This document shows, piece after piece, positions 98-50,721 of a DNA stretch of 64,000 bases. Each line of letters starts with the position of its first letter. The stretch's first letter is position 1. Below the pieces are notes generated by a model. The model was not told the origin of the DNA, made no database searches, and was given only the letters and a program-made list of their open reading frames with translations. The translations under genes were made by a program, and so were the position numbers. The DNA comes from Candidatus Cloacimonadales bacterium (GTDB taxonomy: Bacteria; Cloacimonadota; Cloacimonadia; Cloacimonadales; JAFGVF01), in contig CAXXOU010000004.1 of assembly GCA_963677495.2 (NCBI GenBank), positions 64,001 to 128,000 on the forward strand. Direction: 5' to 3'.

Positions 98-226
98 AAC
101 TTCTCCCTTCACTCTCACAAATTCATAATGCAACTATTATCTGTTAAAATCATTATGTCAAATGTTTTGTAGATATGTAAACCGGTTCCCGCTTTTTCTT
201 CAGTTTCTATCAAAATGCAATCATCC

Positions 227-316
227 CACTGTTTTCCCACTGTGCACTCACTGTGCACCCACTGAAACAGTGGGTTGGCAGTGCCTTAGCAGTGGTGACA
301 CAGTGCGAGTACAGTG
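227..316. repeat. 11-bp-phased palindrome, family A (4x CACTG then 5x CAGTG)
   Basis: CACTG at 227,238,249,260; CAGTG at 268,279,290,301,312; dyad CCCACTG-AAA-CAGTGGG; homologous copy at 34034-34123. Confidence 0.9.
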
Positions 317-366
317 CGTTGGTAAAAAGTTCAGTGAAAGGCAGTGGAAAGGGCATTAAATATAGC

Positions 367-814
367 TAAGTTACTGCAAAAAGCGCTGTGTATGAATTCA
401 GAAGCTGTCGCAATAGCGACCAAAGGGAGATGGGTGAATAGCGAAAAGAGGTAATAATCGATTTCGTGACAAGACGCACCAACGCAGATGGTGCACTCCA
501 TAATTGTAAGTTGTTGCAAATCGCGCTGTGTATGAATTCAGAAGCTGTCGCAATAGCGACCAAAGGGAGATGGGTGAATAGCGAAAAGAGGTAATAATCG
601 ATTTCGTGACAAGACGCACCAACGCAGATGGTGCACTCCATAATTGTAAGTTGTTGCAAATCGCACTGTGAATGTATTCTGAAGCTGTCGGAATAGCGAC
701 CAAAGGGAGATGGGTGAATAGCGAAAAGTGGCAATAATCAAATTCGTGACAAGACGCACCAACGCAGATGGTGCACTCCATAGTTGTAAGTTATTGGAAA
801 ATGCGCTGTGTATG
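367..814. repeat. Tandem array, 140-bp period: 28-bp repeat x4 separating three near-identical 112-bp REP-like cassettes
   Basis: GAAGCTGTCG at 401,541,681; TAAGTT..CTGTG(T/A)ATG 28-mers at 367,507,647,787. Confidence 0.95.
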
Positions 815-1706: not shown

Positions 1707-3113
1707 ATGGAAAACTTGAGAATTGCAATCGTAGGAAACATTGGTGTAGGCAAATCAACTCTAGTAAAAGCTGCAAGTACAGAGCCTTTACAACAGCTTC
1801 TTTTGGATGTTTATCCGGAGAAAGATGACATGCAAGGAGTGTTTGCTTTTCAGGAGGAGTTTGACCCAATTGTACTAGATGCATTCTATAAAGATCCTGT
1901 CAAATATGCTTTTATGGCCCAGATTGAATTCTTTAATGGCCGTCTGGATAGGCAAATAAAGATTCAGGGATGTAAAGGTATTGTGCTTGAAGATAGAACT
2001 TTGCATGAGGACTATCACATCTTTGGTAAAGCCCAAAAAGTGCTTAAAAACATGACTGAAGCTGAGTTTAGAACATATTCCAGAACCTTCCATCTAATGA
2101 CAGAAAAAGTAAGTCCTCCTGATTTGGTAGTCTATTTAAGGGCAGATGTTGAGACTGTTTTAGAAAGGATTGCAAAACGTGGACGTGAAAGTGAAAAGCA
2201 GATTGAACCTGAATATCTTAGACTCTTACACGAGCTTTACGAAGAATATATAAACAGATTTGTTGAGTGTCCTGTGCTTGTAATTGATGCGAACAAGAAG
2301 AATGACCTTAGTAAGGAACGTTTCCTTAAAAAGACAATTAAGCAGATTGCAGAGAAGATAAAGAACCTCGAACTTAGAGTTAGTTCTCCAGGCATCGGAG
2401 AGTGGGTAAGATTACCTCAAACAAAAGCAACTTTGAAAGCTGTGGACAGTGAGAAAAGGCTTGAAGAATATCTTAGAGACAACCCGAAACTGATTACTGT
2501 AGCCGGGAATGTTGGGCTTGGCAAATCTACTCTAACTGCAATTATGGAAAGAACTCTTAAGTTAAAAGGTCTCTATGAAGCACCGGAAGAGAATCCACTC
2601 CTTGAAAAGTTTCTCGGTGATAAGAAGAAGTATTGCTTTGAACTGCAAAGGCATTTCCTCAGAATGCGTAGTGAACAACGTTTGCAAGGTAAGAGCGGAG
2701 ACGGAAGCTATATCAAAGACAGATCTTTTGCAGAGGATTTACTGGTCTTCTGCTATCAGTTTGAAAAAGATGGAATCCTCACAGCTGATGAGTTAAATCA
2801 GCTAATCACAGAATTTAAGCAAGTAAATATGACTCTCCCATCAGCAGACCTGATGATCATCCTAAAAGGAAATGCAAAACTCGCCTGGAGTCGAATCCAA
2901 CAACGGGGTCGTGAGATGGAAACAGAGGGTGGTTGGAGTCTATCTGATATCAGAAACCTCAATGAATGGTATCAAACCTATCACAACGATGTGCTTCATT
3001 ATGGTTTTCACAAAGGACCTATCTTAGAAATAGATGTTGAAAAAGTGGATCTTACAAATCGTATCCATTGTGGCTATATTTTTGAACAGATATATGATAT
3101 GCTGAAGGGATAG
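1707..3113 (+). CDS. Tandem (two-domain) deoxynucleoside kinase
   Basis: Two P-loops GNIGVGKST and GNVGLGKST, two DR(T/S) motifs, two lids RIAKRGRESE and RIQQRGREME. Confidence 0.88.
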   Translation: MENLRIAIVGNIGVGKSTLVKAASTEPLQQLLLDVYPEKDDMQGVFAFQEEFDPIVLDAFYKDPVKYAFMAQIEFFNGRLDRQIKIQGCKGIVLEDRTLHEDYHIFGKAQKVLKNMTEAEFRTYSRTFHLMTEKVSPPDLVVYLRADVETVLERIAKRGRESEKQIEPEYLRLLHELYEEYINRFVECPVLVIDANKKNDLSKERFLKKTIKQIAEKIKNLELRVSSPGIGEWVRLPQTKATLKAVDSEKRLEEYLRDNPKLITVAGNVGLGKSTLTAIMERTLKLKGLYEAPEENPLLEKFLGDKKKYCFELQRHFLRMRSEQRLQGKSGDGSYIKDRSFAEDLLVFCYQFEKDGILTADELNQLITEFKQVNMTLPSADLMIILKGNAKLAWSRIQQRGREMETEGGWSLSDIRNLNEWYQTYHNDVLHYGFHKGPILEIDVEKVDLTNRIHCGYIFEQIYDMLKG

Positions 3114-3117
3114 TACT

Positions 3118-3580
3118 CTACCTTTCGAATGGTCCCTAGACCTTCGAAATGGTGCTTTTGCATTGTGAAGTTTACTTCTTCGGGATTCACCATTTGCAAG
3201 GTTTACAACCATTCCAAAGGTGAGATTGTGTCCTACCTTTCAAATGTACTTAAGACCTTCGAAATGGTGCTTATATTCCCCTCTCGCAGAGGGGTGTCGT
3301 TTTAACGGTGGAGTGTTTTCTCCTAGAATATACTCTATTAATTCAAACCACGAAAGGCACAGAAAGCACGAAAAGGGATGAATTGATTTAGTGTCCTTTC
3401 GAGTATTTCACGGTTAATTAGTTCAGAGAACCGATTAACTGCTTCGAAAGTTCTACTAAGTGCATTTTAGGAAGTCCGTTCCCGCTACGCAAGCTTCGCA
3501 TCTGACAAACTCCCTGAAATGCGAGAAATTCCTTCGTGATTCACCATTTGCAAGGTTTACAACCATTCCAAAGGTGAGTG
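3118..3580. repeat. Mosaic of several REP/MITE-like palindromic elements between convergent genes
   Basis: Duplicated GATTCACCATTTGCAAGGTTTACAACCATTCCAAAGGTGAG; ACCTTTCGAATGGT/ACCTTCGAAATGGT hairpins; CCCCTCT..AGAGGGG; 9-bp-phased CAC..GTG palindrome; CATTTTAGG..CCTGAAATG element also at 34263 and 34648. Confidence 0.85.
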
Positions 3581-16292: not shown

Positions 16293-16434
16293 CTATGCTC
16301 TCTTTCAACAAACGGGACTTGCCCGGGATTTGTTCAGGAATTTAGTGGGACTTTCTCGGGCAAAGCCCCGAGTGATTCCCGAGAGAGTTCCGAGAGATTC
16401 CCGTGTGTGTCCCGAGGATTGAAAGGGGGCATAG
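16293..16434. repeat. 11-bp-phased palindrome, family B (CGGGA-like x5, TCCCG-like x5) with 14/16 terminal inverted repeats
   Basis: Units at 16313,16324,16335,16346,16357 and 16366,16377,16388,16399,16410; ends CTATGCTCTCTTTCAA / TTGAAAGGGGGCATAG. Confidence 0.88.
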
Positions 16435-33975: not shown

Positions 33976-34033
33976 GTCAGTTATTCTGATTACTTTCAGT
34001 TGGACAAATCTTTTCATCAAAACGTAGTCATCT

Positions 34034-34123
34034 CACTGTTCTCCCACTGTGCACGCACTGTGAACCCAGTGAAACAGTGGGTTGGCAGTGCCTTCACAGT
34101 GCGTGCACAGTGCAGACACAGTG
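34034..34123. repeat. 11-bp-phased palindrome, family A, second copy
   Basis: CACTG at 34034,34045,34056, CAGTG variant at 34067; CAGTG at 34075,34086,34097,34108,34119. Confidence 0.9.
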
Positions 34124-34173
34124 GGTGGGTGGAAACTGGAATAAAAGAGAGTGAAAAGGGCAAAAAATGTCGC

Positions 34174-34710
34174 TAAGTTCTTGGTAAAGGCACTGTGTAT
34201 GTCTCTTTAGGACTTGCTCCGCAACGAAGTGTGGGGCGAGAACGAAATTCAGAGATATGCGACTTCGAAGTGCATTTCAGGAAGTCCGTTGCCTTATCTG
34301 GCGGACAAACTCCCTGAAATGCTGTAAGTCATTGCAAAAGCCACTGTGTATGTCTCTCTGAGCGAAGTTAATGAAGTGAAACGAAATGAACGAAGTCGAA
34401 CCGACGACCAACGGGAGGAGCTCGTAAGCCGATAGGCGCACAACTTCCGGGTCGCTCAGGTGGCTTTAGAGAATTTATGATAGAGTATTGACTTATCTTT
34501 TAGTGTTTTCCTTCGGAAAATAGCTTTTCATTAGTTGGGAGACTAAAGCTATCGGTGAGTTCCCTCTACTCGTTCATACTTCACTCGATCGGGATGAGAG
34601 GCTTTGCGGTCACCCTTACGACCAACGGGAGTTCAGGGATTTGCGTACTTCGAAGTGCATTTTAGGAAGTCCGTTGCTTTATCGGGCCGACAAACTCCCT
34701 GAAATGCGGT
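34174..34710. repeat. Two copies of the 28-bp repeat followed by REP-like cassettes
   Basis: TAAGTTCTTGGTAAAGGCACTGTGTATG (34174) and TAAGTCATTGCAAAAGCCACTGTGTATG (34325); ACGACCAACGGGAG twice; CTTCGAAGTGCATTT..CCCTGAAATGC twice. Confidence 0.85.
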
Positions 34711-40431: not shown

Positions 40432-40432
<1 letters not shown>

Positions 40433-41349
40433 TGTCCATTAGTGATCATAAAGTCTTAGACCCGCAGAAAACTGCGGGTCTGAACAATTATCTCTTCTTT
40501 CTGAAGATTGAGAAAGGGCTTAGCCCTAATAGTATAGAAAGCTATAAACGTGACCTTCTTGATTTTCTCTTGTATGATGACTTTGCAAAGAAGCTTGATA
40601 AATACACATCTGATGATGTTTTAAACTATCTCGTTAGCCTTCAAGAGATAGGTCTGATGAATACATCCATTGCAAGAAAGAGAAGTGCTCTTAAGTCATT
40701 CTTCCTTTTCCTCAAAGATGAGGGAGAGGAGATAGATGTAGACTTCGATACTATCCCATCTATTAAATACGGTCAAAAACTTCCGGAGATACTTAGTGTT
40801 GACCAGATGTTGCAACTACTTAGAGCTGTAGAACCAACAGATCATACACCTCTTAGAAACAGAGCAATGCTGGAATTACTCTATGCTACAGGAATGCGTG
40901 TCTCAGAGATGTTATCGCTTAGTGTTCATAACATAGACTGGCAGGAAAGGGTTGTGCTGATTCATGGCAAAGGTCGTAAGCAACGTATTGTACCAATGGC
41001 AGATATAGCTTTTAATTATGTTGAGAAGTATAGATTGGAATCACGACCATATTTCAAGAAACACAACGATACAGACATCCTCTTCTTAAACAGATTCAGT
41101 AACCAAATGAGTCGCATGGGTTTTTGGAAGATCGTGCAGGAATCAGCTAAAAAGGCAGGCTTGCGAGTCCATATCTCTCCCCATACTTTTAGGCATAGTT
41201 TCGCAACTCATCTTTTGGAAGCCGGTGCCAACCTTAGAATAGTTCAAGAGCTACTCGGACATTCCAGTCTTAATACAACACAAATCTATACAAACATTGA
41301 TACTTCCCACTTAATTGAGGTACATAAGCAATATCATCCTCGCGGGTAA
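40432..41349 (+). CDS. xerD: Tyrosine recombinase XerD-type
   Basis: LYATGMRVSE, GKGRKQRIVP, SPHTFRHSFATHLL, LLGH, TQIYT, terminal HPRG. Confidence 0.88.
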
Positions 41350-41823: not shown

Positions 41824-42112
41824 GGGTACGCAGACATCTTGTCCGCATTAAATGGGTACCCCGGCATCTTGCCGGGAAAAAGGCAGCGGACAAGTTGTCG
41901 ACGAAACAAGTATAATCTTTTTTGGGAAGATGATACCTTTCACTATTGATTAACCTCAAAGAATTAAGGGAGTTTGCCGGAACTTCATGATAATGAAGTG
42001 AAAGCCGACTTCCGTGATTCTTTGAAGTGGCGGGATAAACGCCCCGGAGAGACGTTTTACGTAATTCAGCGGTCTCGGCTGAGAAACCAACGCCCCAAAG
42101 AGACGTTTTACG
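41824..42112. repeat. REP-like mosaic
   Basis: GGGTACGCAGACATCTTGTCCGC and GGGTACCCCGGCATCTTGCCGGG hairpins; AACGCCCC..GAGACGTTTTACG twice, with an inverted copy at 48332-48405. Confidence 0.8.
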
Positions 42113-46706: not shown

Positions 46707-46809
46707 CTATGGAGTGCACCAACTGCGTAGGTGCGTCTTGTCACACAACTATAATTTGCTATGTTCCGCTATTCCCTCAACTCCCATTCGGTCGCTATGG
46801 TGCCAGCTT
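46707..46809 (-). repeat. Solo diverged copy of the 112-bp cassette of the 367-814 array
   Basis: Reverse complement reads AAGCTG..ATAGCGACC..GGGAG..GAATAGCG..GTGACAAGACGCACCTACGCAGTTGGTGCACTCCATA. Confidence 0.85.
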
Positions 46810-46812
46810 AGT

Positions 46813-48321
46813 CTATTTCATCAAGATCATCTTCTTAGTCTTTGTATAAGTCCCTGCCTGTAGCTTATAGAAATATATCCCTGAAGCTACATTAATTCCA
46901 TTGTCATCATCACCATACCAGATAACGCTATGTTCACCGGATGGAATCTCTTCGTTAACTAGTGTTCTAATTCTTTGCCCTTTGATGTTGAATACTGCTA
47001 GCTTGATGCTTCCTCTTCTGGGGATACTATAGTTTATCGTTGTAGTTGGATTGAAAGGGTTAGGGTAGTTGGATATGCTATAGGATGTATAGCTTTGTAT
47101 ATCATGTGTTTCAATATTATGTGTCAAACCATATTCATACGCACCAATATCTGGTGATGAACCATAAAAGTCTTCATCATTAAAATTAACTAAAACATCG
47201 TTTTGATAGCTATATGTTGCTGTCCCTCTATCTATACAAGGAGATTGAAGTTGCAATGTAAAGTCATTCTCATCAATATCTTGAAACAAAGGGTCTAGAT
47301 CAATATTTTCTGTAGATATAATAGTTGAACTGTTCAGGTTCTCTATTGCTTCTGTTCCATACTGAAAGTTAGAATAAGCTATTACAACCAAGCAAGGATT
47401 GCTACTAGTATCAATATATACTGGAGAAGTACCACTATCTCTACAAATTGTATTTATCATAAATAGTGTTGCATCATTCTCTAGTGCGATCACACTTTCC
47501 AAATCCGAAGTATTACTATATATTGTTGAGTTCTTAACTATAAGTTTATTGCTATCTAAAGGTAGATAGTTATGAATAACAGAACCATGATCTATACTAC
47601 TGTTATTAGTGAAAAGTGAACGATCCACAGTAACACTAGAACCCATAATCCCAATACATCCTGCTGATCCATCAGAATGATTGTCCTCAAATATACAATC
47701 CTGTATATCAGTTTGATTGCTAATGATTGTTCGCACTGAAGCAGCATAATTTGCTTGATTCTCAAAGAATTTACATGATACAATTGATTGCATTGAACCA
47801 CTAACAATATTTATTGCCCCTCCCATATCTGAGGAGTTAGAATGAAATTCACAATCTTCTATTACGCTGTTTGAGTTGAAGCAAAAGATCGCACCTCCAC
47901 TAACTGTACTTGAATTATTCTCAAAACAGCAACTTCTAATTGTTGGAGATGCTCCGTAAATATAGCATCCCCCTCCTTCATCAACATCCCCACCATTAGC
48001 AATGGTAAAACCTTCAAGGACAGCTAACGGTGTTTCTTGGCTATTAAAAGTAATTATAGATTGGCTTAAGCCAACACCACTAAGAATTGTATTTTGAATA
48101 TCTAAAGAGTTTTGTGTATAAACAAAATTGGATACAAGTGATATAGATTTACCTTCATAATTTATTACTTCATTGTACGTCCCCGGATGTACAAGAACAG
48201 AGTCACCTTCAACTGCTACGTCTATACCCTCTTGGATTGTAGTATAGTCTGCCGGGATATTAATAACGGATGCAATAAGGGTAATAGGTAGTAAATATAG
48301 TAAAAATAATATCTGTTTCAT
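46813..48321 (-). CDS. Secreted beta-helix protein with FlgD-Ig/T9SS-like CTD
   Basis: Signal peptide; TIQEGID, GGAI repeats, SPCIDRG, DIGAYE, NYPNPFNP..KMILMK. Confidence 0.82.
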   Translation of the reverse strand: MKQILFLLYLLPITLIASVINIPADYTTIQEGIDVAVEGDSVLVHPGTYNEVINYEGKSISLVSNFVYTQNSLDIQNTILSGVGLSQSIITFNSQETPLAVLEGFTIANGGDVDEGGGCYIYGASPTIRSCCFENNSSTVSGGAIFCFNSNSVIEDCEFHSNSSDMGGAINIVSGSMQSIVSCKFFENQANYAASVRTIISNQTDIQDCIFEDNHSDGSAGCIGIMGSSVTVDRSLFTNNSSIDHGSVIHNYLPLDSNKLIVKNSTIYSNTSDLESVIALENDATLFMINTICRDSGTSPVYIDTSSNPCLVVIAYSNFQYGTEAIENLNSSTIISTENIDLDPLFQDIDENDFTLQLQSPCIDRGTATYSYQNDVLVNFNDEDFYGSSPDIGAYEYGLTHNIETHDIQSYTSYSISNYPNPFNPTTTINYSIPRRGSIKLAVFNIKGQRIRTLVNEEIPSGEHSVIWYGDDDNGINVASGIYFYKLQAGTYTKTKKMILMK

Positions 48322-48331
48322 AATGTCTCCT

Positions 48332-48447
48332 GTAAAGCGTCTCTCCGGGTCGTTGGTTTCTCAGCCGAGACAGCTGAGTTACGTAAAACGTCACTCCGGG
48401 GCGTTCATTCCCCTCTAAAGAGGGGTGGCGCGTAGCGACGGGGTGTT
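48332..48447. repeat. REP-like elements between tandem CTD genes
   Basis: Inverted copy of 42038-42111 plus ATTCCCCTCTAAAGAGGGGTGGCGCGTAGCGACGGGGTGTT. Confidence 0.8.
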
Positions 48448-48483: not shown

Positions 48484-50721
48484 TTATTTCATCAATATCA
48501 TCTTCTTAGTCTTTGTATAAGTCCCAGCCTGTAGCTTATAGAAATATATTCCTGAAGCTACTTTAACTCCATTATCATCATCACCACCCCAGATAACACT
48601 ATGTTCACCGGATGGCATCTCTCGATTTACTAATGTCTTAACTCTTTGCCCTTTCACATTGAATACTGCTAACTTGATGTTTCCTCTTCCGGGGATACTG
48701 TAGTTAATAGTTGTAGTTGGATTGAAAGGGTTAGGGTAGTTGTAGAATTTGTACTCAGAGCTATGTAAGTAATCATTGTCGATGTCAACAGGATTCCATT
48801 CATGGCAACCAATATCTATTTGACCTCCATATATTCGTGGAAAACCTGTTAGGTCAAACTCTGGAAGTTCAACATCTTCCGGCATAACTAGAGTTCCATT
48901 ATCAATTGCAGGGGATAGTGAAGACAGAAAGTAATATCCTTCACTAACATCCCATAAAGGGTTATCATTCATATTGTTTTCTTGCCAATCGACAAAACTC
49001 TGACCAATATGTGCGATATTCCCCTCTCCTCCCTGAATTATTGAGTTTCTTACGAACAATGATTCCTGATAAGTTTGATTATTCATCACTATTTGATATG
49101 GTGTATTCCCATATAATATTGAGTTAACAATGTTCAATTTAGAGACTGTAGCAACAGATATGGCAGCTCCCCAGAATGAATCAGCACTATTATTTGCTAT
49201 TGTTGAATTTATTAAATTACATCTTGCAGGTGTAGGGTAGTTTCCGGAAGATATTGTTAACCCGACACCACTAGTATTCCATTCAGAATATGTTTCTATA
49301 TTATTAACTACCTCAGTATTGATAATATTCATCAAACTACCGTTATATGTGTTTAAAACAATACTGGAATAACTGAAAACATCTGGTGAGGAGTATTCAA
49401 CATTATCATATATTCTAGTGTTTGATATTGAAGAATCGTCACAATAATGAAATTTTAATGCTCCCCATGAACTGCAATCATGAATTCTTAAATTGTTTAC
49501 ATCACCACTACTATATATCATGTAAACAGGTTCTCGAGAACCCATATAGTTAGATAAATCAACATTGTCGATCTCGAAATCTATCGCATGGTGGAGGTGG
49601 ATTCCTTGAGTGTCATAACCATTTATTAGTGATAAGTTTCTAATCCCAACATTTCGATCACGATAGGTCGATCGAAAGAAACCTGTAATAGATTCAGCAT
49701 CAAGTATCGTACCGGTATCTGATTCACCAATAATACTTACATTATCCTTTAATTGGATCGGAAAAATCTGTTGATTTAAGCTTTCAGAATAGACTCCATC
49801 TTCAACATGGACTGTTCGGTGTGTTAAACTATCTGAATCTACATTTAACATTGCATATGCTATCGTTTTTAGGGGAGAACTTGGTGATTCACCACTATTA
49901 TTGTCATTACCTGTTGTTGAAACATATAAGTCAGACGCAACTTCGTCAACCACATGATTCTGTATCATGAACTCGAACCTGCTTTCTAAAGGGAACATAG
50001 GTTCAGAGTATCCGTCTGTTGGAAAAGCATGGTAAATTGTTGGATTTGCTACAGTGAAAGTATCAACATACACTACCTGAGTGGGGCAATTAGGAGTACT
50101 AAACAAGTCGTTCCCTGTTCCAGCATAATTAAGATATACACAATTAATATTTGATGCTCCAAAGCTGACATTTGAATCACATAAATAGAAACCACCACCA
50201 AAAGTACTAGCAATATTCTTTTTTACGGTAGTATTTCCAAGACTCAAAAATGAGCTATCAAGTAAAATCCCACCACCATAATCTGCTCTATTATTCTTTA
50301 TTACACAATTAAAAACTCTAATACTTGAATCCTCAGCTCTAATTCCTCCACCTACAAAACATAAGAAATCAAAAGTACCTGAACCATTTCTAATTGTAAA
50401 CCCTTCGATTTGAATCCAGTTAGTATCGATTATGTTGATTACGCTTCCGGTTCTGTTCCCATCAAGTACTGTATTCGCAATATCCATAGGATCATGAGAC
50501 TCATGAAAATCACTGATAATTGTTATATCTTTCTCTGTAACAGTAAGATTCTCATAATACACTCCAGGATGCACTAAGATAGTATCGTAATTATTCGCAG
50601 AATCAATTGCATCTTGGATTGTAGTATAATCACCTGTCCCATCTTCAAAAATTTCGATTACTACACAAAACATCTTGTTAACAAATAGAATCATAATTAG
50701 AACAAAGCTGATTTTCATCAT
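48484..50721 (-). CDS. Secreted beta-helix (DUF1565-like) protein with FlgD-Ig/T9SS-like CTD; paralogue of 21401-23791
   Basis: TIQDAID, YVSTTGNDNNSG..PLKTI, SPAIDNG, DIGCHE, NYPNPFNP..KMILMK. Confidence 0.82.
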   Translation of the reverse strand: MMKISFVLIMILFVNKMFCVVIEIFEDGTGDYTTIQDAIDSANNYDTILVHPGVYYENLTVTEKDITIISDFHESHDPMDIANTVLDGNRTGSVINIIDTNWIQIEGFTIRNGSGTFDFLCFVGGGIRAEDSSIRVFNCVIKNNRADYGGGILLDSSFLSLGNTTVKKNIASTFGGGFYLCDSNVSFGASNINCVYLNYAGTGNDLFSTPNCPTQVVYVDTFTVANPTIYHAFPTDGYSEPMFPLESRFEFMIQNHVVDEVASDLYVSTTGNDNNSGESPSSPLKTIAYAMLNVDSDSLTHRTVHVEDGVYSESLNQQIFPIQLKDNVSIIGESDTGTILDAESITGFFRSTYRDRNVGIRNLSLINGYDTQGIHLHHAIDFEIDNVDLSNYMGSREPVYMIYSSGDVNNLRIHDCSSWGALKFHYCDDSSISNTRIYDNVEYSSPDVFSYSSIVLNTYNGSLMNIINTEVVNNIETYSEWNTSGVGLTISSGNYPTPARCNLINSTIANNSADSFWGAAISVATVSKLNIVNSILYGNTPYQIVMNNQTYQESLFVRNSIIQGGEGNIAHIGQSFVDWQENNMNDNPLWDVSEGYYFLSSLSPAIDNGTLVMPEDVELPEFDLTGFPRIYGGQIDIGCHEWNPVDIDNDYLHSSEYKFYNYPNPFNPTTTINYSIPGRGNIKLAVFNVKGQRVKTLVNREMPSGEHSVIWGGDDDNGVKVASGIYFYKLQAGTYTKTKKMILMK

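Follow-up and report, generated by a model that had tools for sequence, protein, structure and literature searches.

A phased leader and a recurring 28-bp box form a mosaic intergenic repeat with helically spaced boxes in a Cloacimonadota genome

Introduction

In NIMEs, the dRS3 + RS arrays, a short conserved repeat brackets spacers of 50-150 bp that belong to many repeat families (PMC1797815). According to the passages of that paper drawn on here, syntenic arrays vary in unit number, insertion sequences land in the arrays, a recombinase acting on the repeat was proposed, and NIMEs are reported in Neisseria only. Related in another respect are the repeats of the TIRYT/TnpA-Y1 subclass 2.1, in which, in the cited passages, class-2 Y1 genes have inverted, partly self-complementary flanking repeats that also occur as dispersed dimers (PMC3733652, PMC6006769).

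Here we describe a locus at the start of a 64,000-nucleotide stretch of Cloacimonadota DNA (hereafter, the window), in which a phased leader is followed by 28-bp boxes and hairpin cassettes. CRISPR and integron arrays likewise consist of a leader followed by n+1 repeats around n spacers, and an earlier note on this DNA read the locus in those terms, as an array that captures mobile cassettes and duplicates a separate 28-mer on each insertion. Short words at helical-turn spacing beside a small-protein gene, another trait relevant to the locus, are found in plasmid parC/ParR and in the omega heptads. We surveyed the elements in this genome (G000) and in a set of 41 genomes, and weighed this reading against others.

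Results

The array in the window

The features of the window are as follows.

204..366, + strand: leader, a long imperfect inverted repeat with a purine-rich linker (left boundary approximate)
227..316, + strand: leader core, words phased at 11 bp, four CACTG followed by five CAGTG
317..366, + strand: variable linker whose AA/TT tracts keep a 10.5-bp phase
367..394, + strand: box 1 (28 bp), formed by the 3' end of the leader itself; a CACTG-type core occupies box positions 18-22
395..506, + strand: cassette 1, hairpin half A (401-443) and hairpin half X (466-502)
507..534, + strand: box 2
535..646, + strand: cassette 2, of the same sequence as cassette 1, presumably by recent local duplication
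647..674, + strand: box 3
675..786, + strand: cassette 3 (A + X)
787..814, + strand: box 4, the terminal box
34012..34173, + strand: second leader copy
34174..34352, + strand: box, B2/Y cassette (123 bp), box, at a spacing of 151 bp, one helical turn above the 140-bp unit
34352..34707, + strand: hairpin modules D, C and Y that trail the array, with no full box
40432..41349, + strand: XerD-like tyrosine recombinase (the genome has two tyrosine recombinases), with no array link shown
46707..46809, - strand: solo A+X cassette lacking boxes, flanked by converging genes

In the leader core, CACTG starts at 227, 238, 249 and 260, and CAGTG at 268, 279, 290, 301 and 312. All three cassettes of the first array are 112 bp long; units 1 and 2 are identical at 112/112 positions and unit 3 at 104/112. 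The box pattern has six matches in the window (367, 507, 647, 787, 34174 and 34325) and none in each of 100 shuffles. These data confirm the phased palindrome, four boxes and three cassettes of the earlier note, which was also correct that leader and box recur 34 kb away with another cassette (a single B2/Y unit between two boxes) and that a cassette without the 28-mer stands alone at 46707-46809, where it lies on the minus strand.

The same note had allowed for the tandem being an assembly artefact. In assembled contigs from four runs of one sample, possibly the source sample and with no piece spanning the full array, 74-nt pieces common to units 1 and 2 reached a depth of 45-51, against 23-27 for single-copy sequence, and this roughly twofold depth speaks against an artefact. 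At the array, the read-derived contigs, which drop rare variants, contain one joint with a 26-base side and no empty form.

Other repeats lie elsewhere in the window: a further intergenic repeat nest that includes a solo Y module (3109-3578 and 3459-3522), a 258-bp duplication at the 3' ends of two secreted-protein genes (46814-47071 and 48485-48742), and an 80-bp inverted pair 6.2 kb apart (42032-42111 and 48332-48411).

Leaders, boxes and cassettes across the genome

The genome contains 66 full leader copies, with one box at 14 loci, two at 45, three at six and four at one, the window array being the sole four-box locus. Boxes surround cassettes at the 52/66 loci with two to four boxes, where the n+1 layout read from the window is borne out. 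A box directly abuts the leader in 65/66 copies, the exception being split by an IS21-type insertion, and the last CAGTG lies 72 bp from the box core in 63/66. When the genome was scanned with a weight matrix (whose controls above 12 bits were 0 for the reversed and 1 for the shuffled sequence), 132 boxes scored above 14 bits, 126 of them inside leader arrays. Moreover, leaders in congeners usually end in a single diverged box without a cassette, and we therefore regard the box as the leader's own end, not as the separate unit that it had been taken for.

The cassettes comprise 60 units, assembled from left halves A, B1, B2, C, D and E and right halves X, Y, Z and W (half labels and module boundaries are our own designations and cuts). 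Heterogeneous cassettes were anticipated at further loci, and the 60 units do fall into 10 named left-right combinations, with two units unclassified. Spacers are non-coding host repeats of 79-312 bp; each of the short ones (n=58) is at least 72% covered by multi-copy sequence, and all halves counted (E not among them) also occur without a box. Arrays contain at most three cassettes, and the cassette repertoire is closed.

The leader is present in 4/41 genomes, all of one genus, and the window cassette in 1/41; the pattern also occurs at 14 loci in a Cloacimonadota assembly. Metagenome scans returned 0 loci with two patterns and the leader DNA had no match in a phage collection, near relatives being possibly absent from these collections. 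As to the terminal inverted repeats and target-site duplication of a MITE, the leader's left end pairs with the inner arm and not with the right end, and the congeners are too diverged for empty sites to be read for target-site duplication.

Two units of 2.6-2.8 kb were considered as large autonomous cassettes and rejected, as they contain a 2360-bp IS21-type insertion, a secondary event. This IS21-type element (2360 bp where measured, with istA/istB-like frames) is found inside leaders or cassettes at five loci of G000 (C2:149694, C4:1165767, C1:470897, C4:1304843-1307270 and C4:359630), suggesting a target preference. In G001, a different insertion sequence interrupts the linker of four leader copies at about the same place (L035, L039, L040 and L042).

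Hairpin halves at Y1-HUH genes

Of the 14 Y1-HUH genes in the genome, seven encode the class-2 Y---NP motif, taken as given in passages of PMC6006769. Halves C and W bracket the Y1 gene at C3:76655 as an inverted pair, B1 surrounds the one at C2:350454, and two others have B2-like and X-like copies on their flanks. At these 4/14 genes the class-2 motif is present, and bracketing by the same hairpins that fill the arrays fits TIRYT-type repeats as described in passages of PMC3733652, the Y1 subclass being assigned from the motif and flanks, not from a tree. Halves A, Y, Z and D flank none of the 14 Y1 genes. Most of these genes have a flanking repeat family of their own. A Y1 gene as the leader's partner was rejected, with phased elements upstream of 2/14 and downstream of 2/14.

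Boxes are spaced by whole helical turns

Box-to-box distances in G000 cluster at 138-142 and 150-152 bp, with single values of 107, 184, 194, 200, 201, 246 and 340; in G002 they are 67/68 and 88, and in G003 68, 86/87, 95, 98/99 and 109. The 13 spacing classes of the three species, which we grouped ourselves and which are not independent, share a phase at 10.5 bp (R 0.69), with a p of 0.001 at a fixed period and 0.005 when periods of 10.2-11 are scanned; the best period within 9-13 is 10.55. With the phase set on 140/151 alone, 9/11 other classes deviate by no more than a quarter turn (p 0.03). Distances from arm to box form groups at 61/62, 71-73 and 82/83, plus a single value of 106, and of the weak or half boxes five are in phase (140, 141, 150, 310 and 381) and four off phase (147, 251, 354 and 385).

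The eight G003 spacers (40, 58-59, 67-71 and 81 bp) include one related pair and match no hairpin module, and congener spacers are mostly without folding. Yet AA/TT tracts are phased at 10.5 bp in congener spacers (10 spacers, p 0.004) and linkers (24 linkers, 0/2000 shuffles), whereas the REP cassettes are without A-tract phasing. Since these unrelated, A-tract-phased spacers retain quantised spacing, it is the geometry that is conserved and not the cassette content. Moreover, because box spacings differ by whole turns of DNA, the boxes are likely docking sites for a protein, which would be bound on bent duplex DNA. The left half of the box could perhaps be read as IHF-like, with two mismatches to the IHF consensus; the genome contains two HU/IHF genes.

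A candidate family of ~150-aa proteins

In G001, a leader lies 350 bp upstream of a 150-aa gene. The counterpart of this gene in G000 (C4:1447755-1448204; L150:1256-1705) is 91% identical and has a CACTG leader upstream as well, inverted and further away. The family has 23 paralogs in G000 (the candidate and 22 others), occurs in 25/41 genomes and comprises 457 representatives at 50% identity, with one invariant tyrosine (Y72); its Atlas clusters are mostly from Cloacimonadota. The net charge of the paralogs ranges from -10 to +13. The protein has no match in Pfam, PHROG, NCBIfam or the PDB, and it gave no match in a plasmid collection and 0 loci in viral contigs, where near relatives are possibly absent. 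Its structure model is confident (pLDDT 90.5); fold searches with it gave no clear match, which is not proof of a new fold, and the best of the weak ribbon-helix-helix matches (Z 4.0, rmsd 2.4, 49 residues) covers two helices only. The homodimer prediction scored 0.08, against a mark of 0.42. A resemblance to DUF6266 was considered, for which there was an Atlas lead (0.84, 11% of members); membership of DUF6266/PF19781 was not confirmed, with 0/48 members at E 0.01 and 0/41 genomes over the cut-off.

Phased word arrays are common in the genome (~290), with at least eight further 11-bp families beyond CACTG. They lie upstream of 15/23 and downstream of 0/23 paralogs in G000, a set in which one upstream match looks spurious and one paralog is a fragment, and upstream of 24/61 and downstream of 1/61 in other genomes, where the 61 loci are those with at least 600 bp on both sides among a part of the homologs listed. 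Against gap-matched controls in G000, the upstream enrichment is weak (14/22 vs 274/623, p 0.08), and downstream depletion has a p of 0.005 (0/12 vs 181/478). Stronger evidence for a gene link than this enrichment is the near one-to-one mapping of array families to paralogs: for 10/13 multi-copy array families, a copy lies ahead of a paralog gene (10 distinct vs 6.7 expected, p 0.005), and rare families are found there more often than expected (6/13, p 0.0008). Sister proteins also have a common word across genomes, which could be simple co-inheritance. The CACTG leader itself adjoins only 1/23 paralogs, at a distance and in an orientation that differ between G000 and G001.

One clade of paralogs is without an upstream array. 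Further 11-bp-phased word arrays lie in the window at 16354, 27635 and 50892, and three phased families carry an inverted pair of DnaA-box-like 9-mers (consensus as quoted in a passage of PMC6006769). In G013 and G025, 11-bp arrays of a TACGGTA family occur at dozens of dispersed places, and in both genomes one copy lies upstream of sister paralogs.

These observations bear on an alternative that we consider unlikely, namely that the arrays are BIME-like repeat clutter, in which Y1-HUH enzymes and slippage amplified one composite, the box is a mere linker, and both the spacing and the gene link are by-products of descent. Tandem amplification of BIMEs and REPINs is known (passages of PMC3333891 and PMC3116915), and the genome is dense in such repeats. 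The module order is stereotyped, with B1 first in 20/21 and D later in 12/14, leader identity slightly follows cassette class (0.870 vs 0.861, p 0.003), and the gap-matched gene enrichment, as noted, is weak. Against this, unrelated congener spacers retain quantised lengths and A-tract phase, and array families map almost one-to-one onto paralogs; moreover, the CACTG phased family alone is coupled to these REP modules, in 59/67 cases vs 0-11 of 6-56 in eight other phased families.

Neighbouring boxes differ, and one site is empty in congeners

First and second boxes of a locus are identical in 0/52 pairs, with a mean of 22.9/28 matching positions vs 22.6 in shuffled pairs (p 0.036). Neighbouring boxes that are never identical are not recent target duplications, and so the duplication of the 28-mer on cassette insertion, central to the earlier note, is not seen in recent form. 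Position 15 of the box is A in 43/66 first boxes and T in 44/60 later boxes. Positions 15-16 go with the neighbour on the upstream side, and positions 28 and 30-34 with that on the downstream side (conditional tests, uncorrected p 0.0025-0.05; the box-neighbour tests gave uncorrected p-values of 0.012 and 0.027). Box halves that track different neighbours fit an exchange inside the box, and from this pattern we infer that it took place within positions 17-26, around CACTG. Terminal boxes are more decayed after CACTG, matching at positions 23-28 in 0.76 vs 0.89.

The leaders are mosaic too: linkage between sites falls with distance (r2 0.115 to 0.02), and 897/990 pairs of variable sites show four-gamete conflicts, to which recurrent mutation may contribute.

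Among 41 congener elements, de-duplicated by sequence, four have both flanks syntenic in G000. Two of these (G002 L012 and G003 L003) represent one site, which bears a single box in both congeners and three boxes with two cassettes in G000 (C1:444409); this is the only empty/filled site among the 41, of the kind that the earlier note had called for. The other two have no leader in G000, one of them being doubtful. At the common site, the G000 leader has 86% similarity to its paralogs but 62-63% to its orthologs (ranks 5 and 27 among 65), indicating concerted evolution or independent insertion.

Does a dedicated, leader-directed system then insert mobile hairpin cassettes at the box and duplicate it, as in CRISPR adaptation or integron capture? 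The n+1 layout and the one empty/filled site would suit such a system, as would the change of allegiance between box halves near CACTG, the decay of terminal boxes past it, and the unique G003 spacers between conserved boxes. Nonetheless we find it quite improbable. No pair of neighbouring boxes is identical, the repertoire is closed, no array has more than three cassettes, and the spacers are repeat modules, not foreign DNA; congeners repeat boxes around non-hairpin spacers, and those of G003 resemble diverged linkers. Nor did we identify an integron integrase: the XerD-like recombinase of the window, which the earlier note missed, scored 138 bits against a cut-off of 265 and is not one, and the second recombinase of the genome is an unclassified 311-aa frame. 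A genome-wide search for an Xer/pdif site (11-6-11, with an ATAA-N6-TTAT core) found no full site and one core match, at C1:84080, which is not a box.

The cas9-cas1-cas2 locus of the genome (G000 C4:296100-301800) has its own 36-bp repeat and ~16 spacers, and the local score of the box against that repeat is 10, with a shuffle mean of 10.9. As the repeat is unrelated to the box, the resident Cas1-Cas2 was rejected as the agent. A by-eye likeness of modules Z and E to the CRISPR repeat was likewise rejected, being no better than in shuffles. One of the 66 leaders, with its CACTG array, lies ~300 bp upstream of cas9.

Finally, a role for the element as a hairpin, either transcribed or single-stranded (a small RNA or an ssDNA intermediate), with processing at the boxes, is very improbable: the leader does fold better than shuffles (z -3.7 and -4.6), its 11-bp step matches the turn of the A-form helix, which has 11 bp per turn, and the gene on its 5' side points away in 49/65 loci, but the long-range spacings fit 10.5 bp over 11 (R 0.69 vs 0.40), congener spacers are mostly unfolded, and no Rfam family reached the gathering threshold in the window.

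Discussion

Given the anatomy, the closed cassette set, the 10.5-bp rule in three species, the mosaic leaders and the one empty/filled site, we consider it probable that the locus is one of 66 dispersed, non-coding mosaic repeats, in which the leader's terminal box recurs at whole-helical-turn spacings around REP/TIR-type hairpin pairs. The boxes would likely serve in protein docking, and the arrays would grow and be reshuffled by recombination at the box and by local duplication, not by capture of foreign DNA.

The order of events, the binding and the catalyst in the following scheme are our deductions. A putative DNA-binding protein would read the CACTG words, in the leader core as in every box, along a single face of bent B-DNA; the predicted ~150-aa product of G000 C4:1447755 is the best candidate for this role. 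Hairpin halves of Y1-HUH origin would be placed behind a box, and units in helical register would be retained. Units could then move between loci by exchange within box positions 17-26, giving n+1 boxes without a dedicated integrase; catalysis would most likely fall to one of the resident Y1-HUH enzymes or to host recombination. The three-unit array of the window would have arisen by local tandem duplication, as modelled for BIMEs (PMC3333891) and seen for REPINs (PMC3116915) in the passages cited.

A wider reading, which we put forward tentatively and with more doubt than confidence, is that of a new class of self-spreading element in Cloacimonadota. Each ~150-aa paralog would recognise its own 11-bp-phased array, build a helically registered nucleoprotein and drive copying and exchange at the word. 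Solo arrays would thereby spread by the dozen, and the CACTG family would extend into box arrays that accept any spacer in register, including the hairpins of other elements.

Our searches of open-access main text (PMC and bioRxiv) turned up neither these elements nor the protein link. What the analysis offers is a spacing rule and a testable partner family, with about one paralog per array family. If the binding is true, these small proteins would form a family in which DNA specificity is rewritten from one paralog to the next, and they would offer a way into the question of how mosaic intergenic repeats, NIMEs and BIMEs among them, are maintained and spread. Should the binding fail, the arrays are an orderly case of known mosaic repeats.

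Comparison with known systems

CRISPR arrays differ from the array in their repeats and spacers: the boxes here are non-identical, and the spacers are host repeats of 79-312 bp, not unique sequences of ~30-40 bp. Moreover, we could link no neighbouring cas1 or intI to the arrays, in contrast to both CRISPR and integron systems. With parC/ParR and the omega heptads the locus has in common phased words next to a small-protein gene; here, however, there are dozens of solo chromosomal copies, and the candidate protein has only weak ribbon-helix-helix matches.

The likeness to TIRYT lies in C and W, which bracket C3:76655 in the same way, whereas the passages of PMC3733652 and PMC6006769 mention no leader or box. 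With the E. coli BIME-1/BIME-2 and TnpA-REP, as described in passages of PMC3333891, the array has in common linkered hairpin doublets, chimeric combinations and near-identical tandem copies, as well as Y1-HUH genes flanked by the same hairpins. It differs from BIMEs in that no GTAG tag is found at the ends of nine module seeds (whose boundaries we cut ourselves), and in that the linker is part of a leader element in its own right and is found around non-hairpin spacers as well. With NIMEs it has in common a short repeat that brackets spacers of several families, variation at syntenic sites, and insertion sequences; yet dRS3, in the cited passages of PMC1797815, is a 20-bp inverted repeat, whereas the box is 28 bp long, asymmetric, and the end of a 190-bp phased leader, and the present arrays have no more than 1-3 units, with helically quantised spacing.

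By our comparison, then, the array resembles the Neisseria NIME and the BIME arrays most, while the sequence-defining features of both fail here. The array is genuine and represents a novel form of mosaic intergenic repeat; by membership it is not a CRISPR analogue, and membership of the integrons is unsupported. Judged from its sequence, the array is likely a NIME/BIME-like mosaic built on a protein-docking scaffold and reshuffled by recombination.
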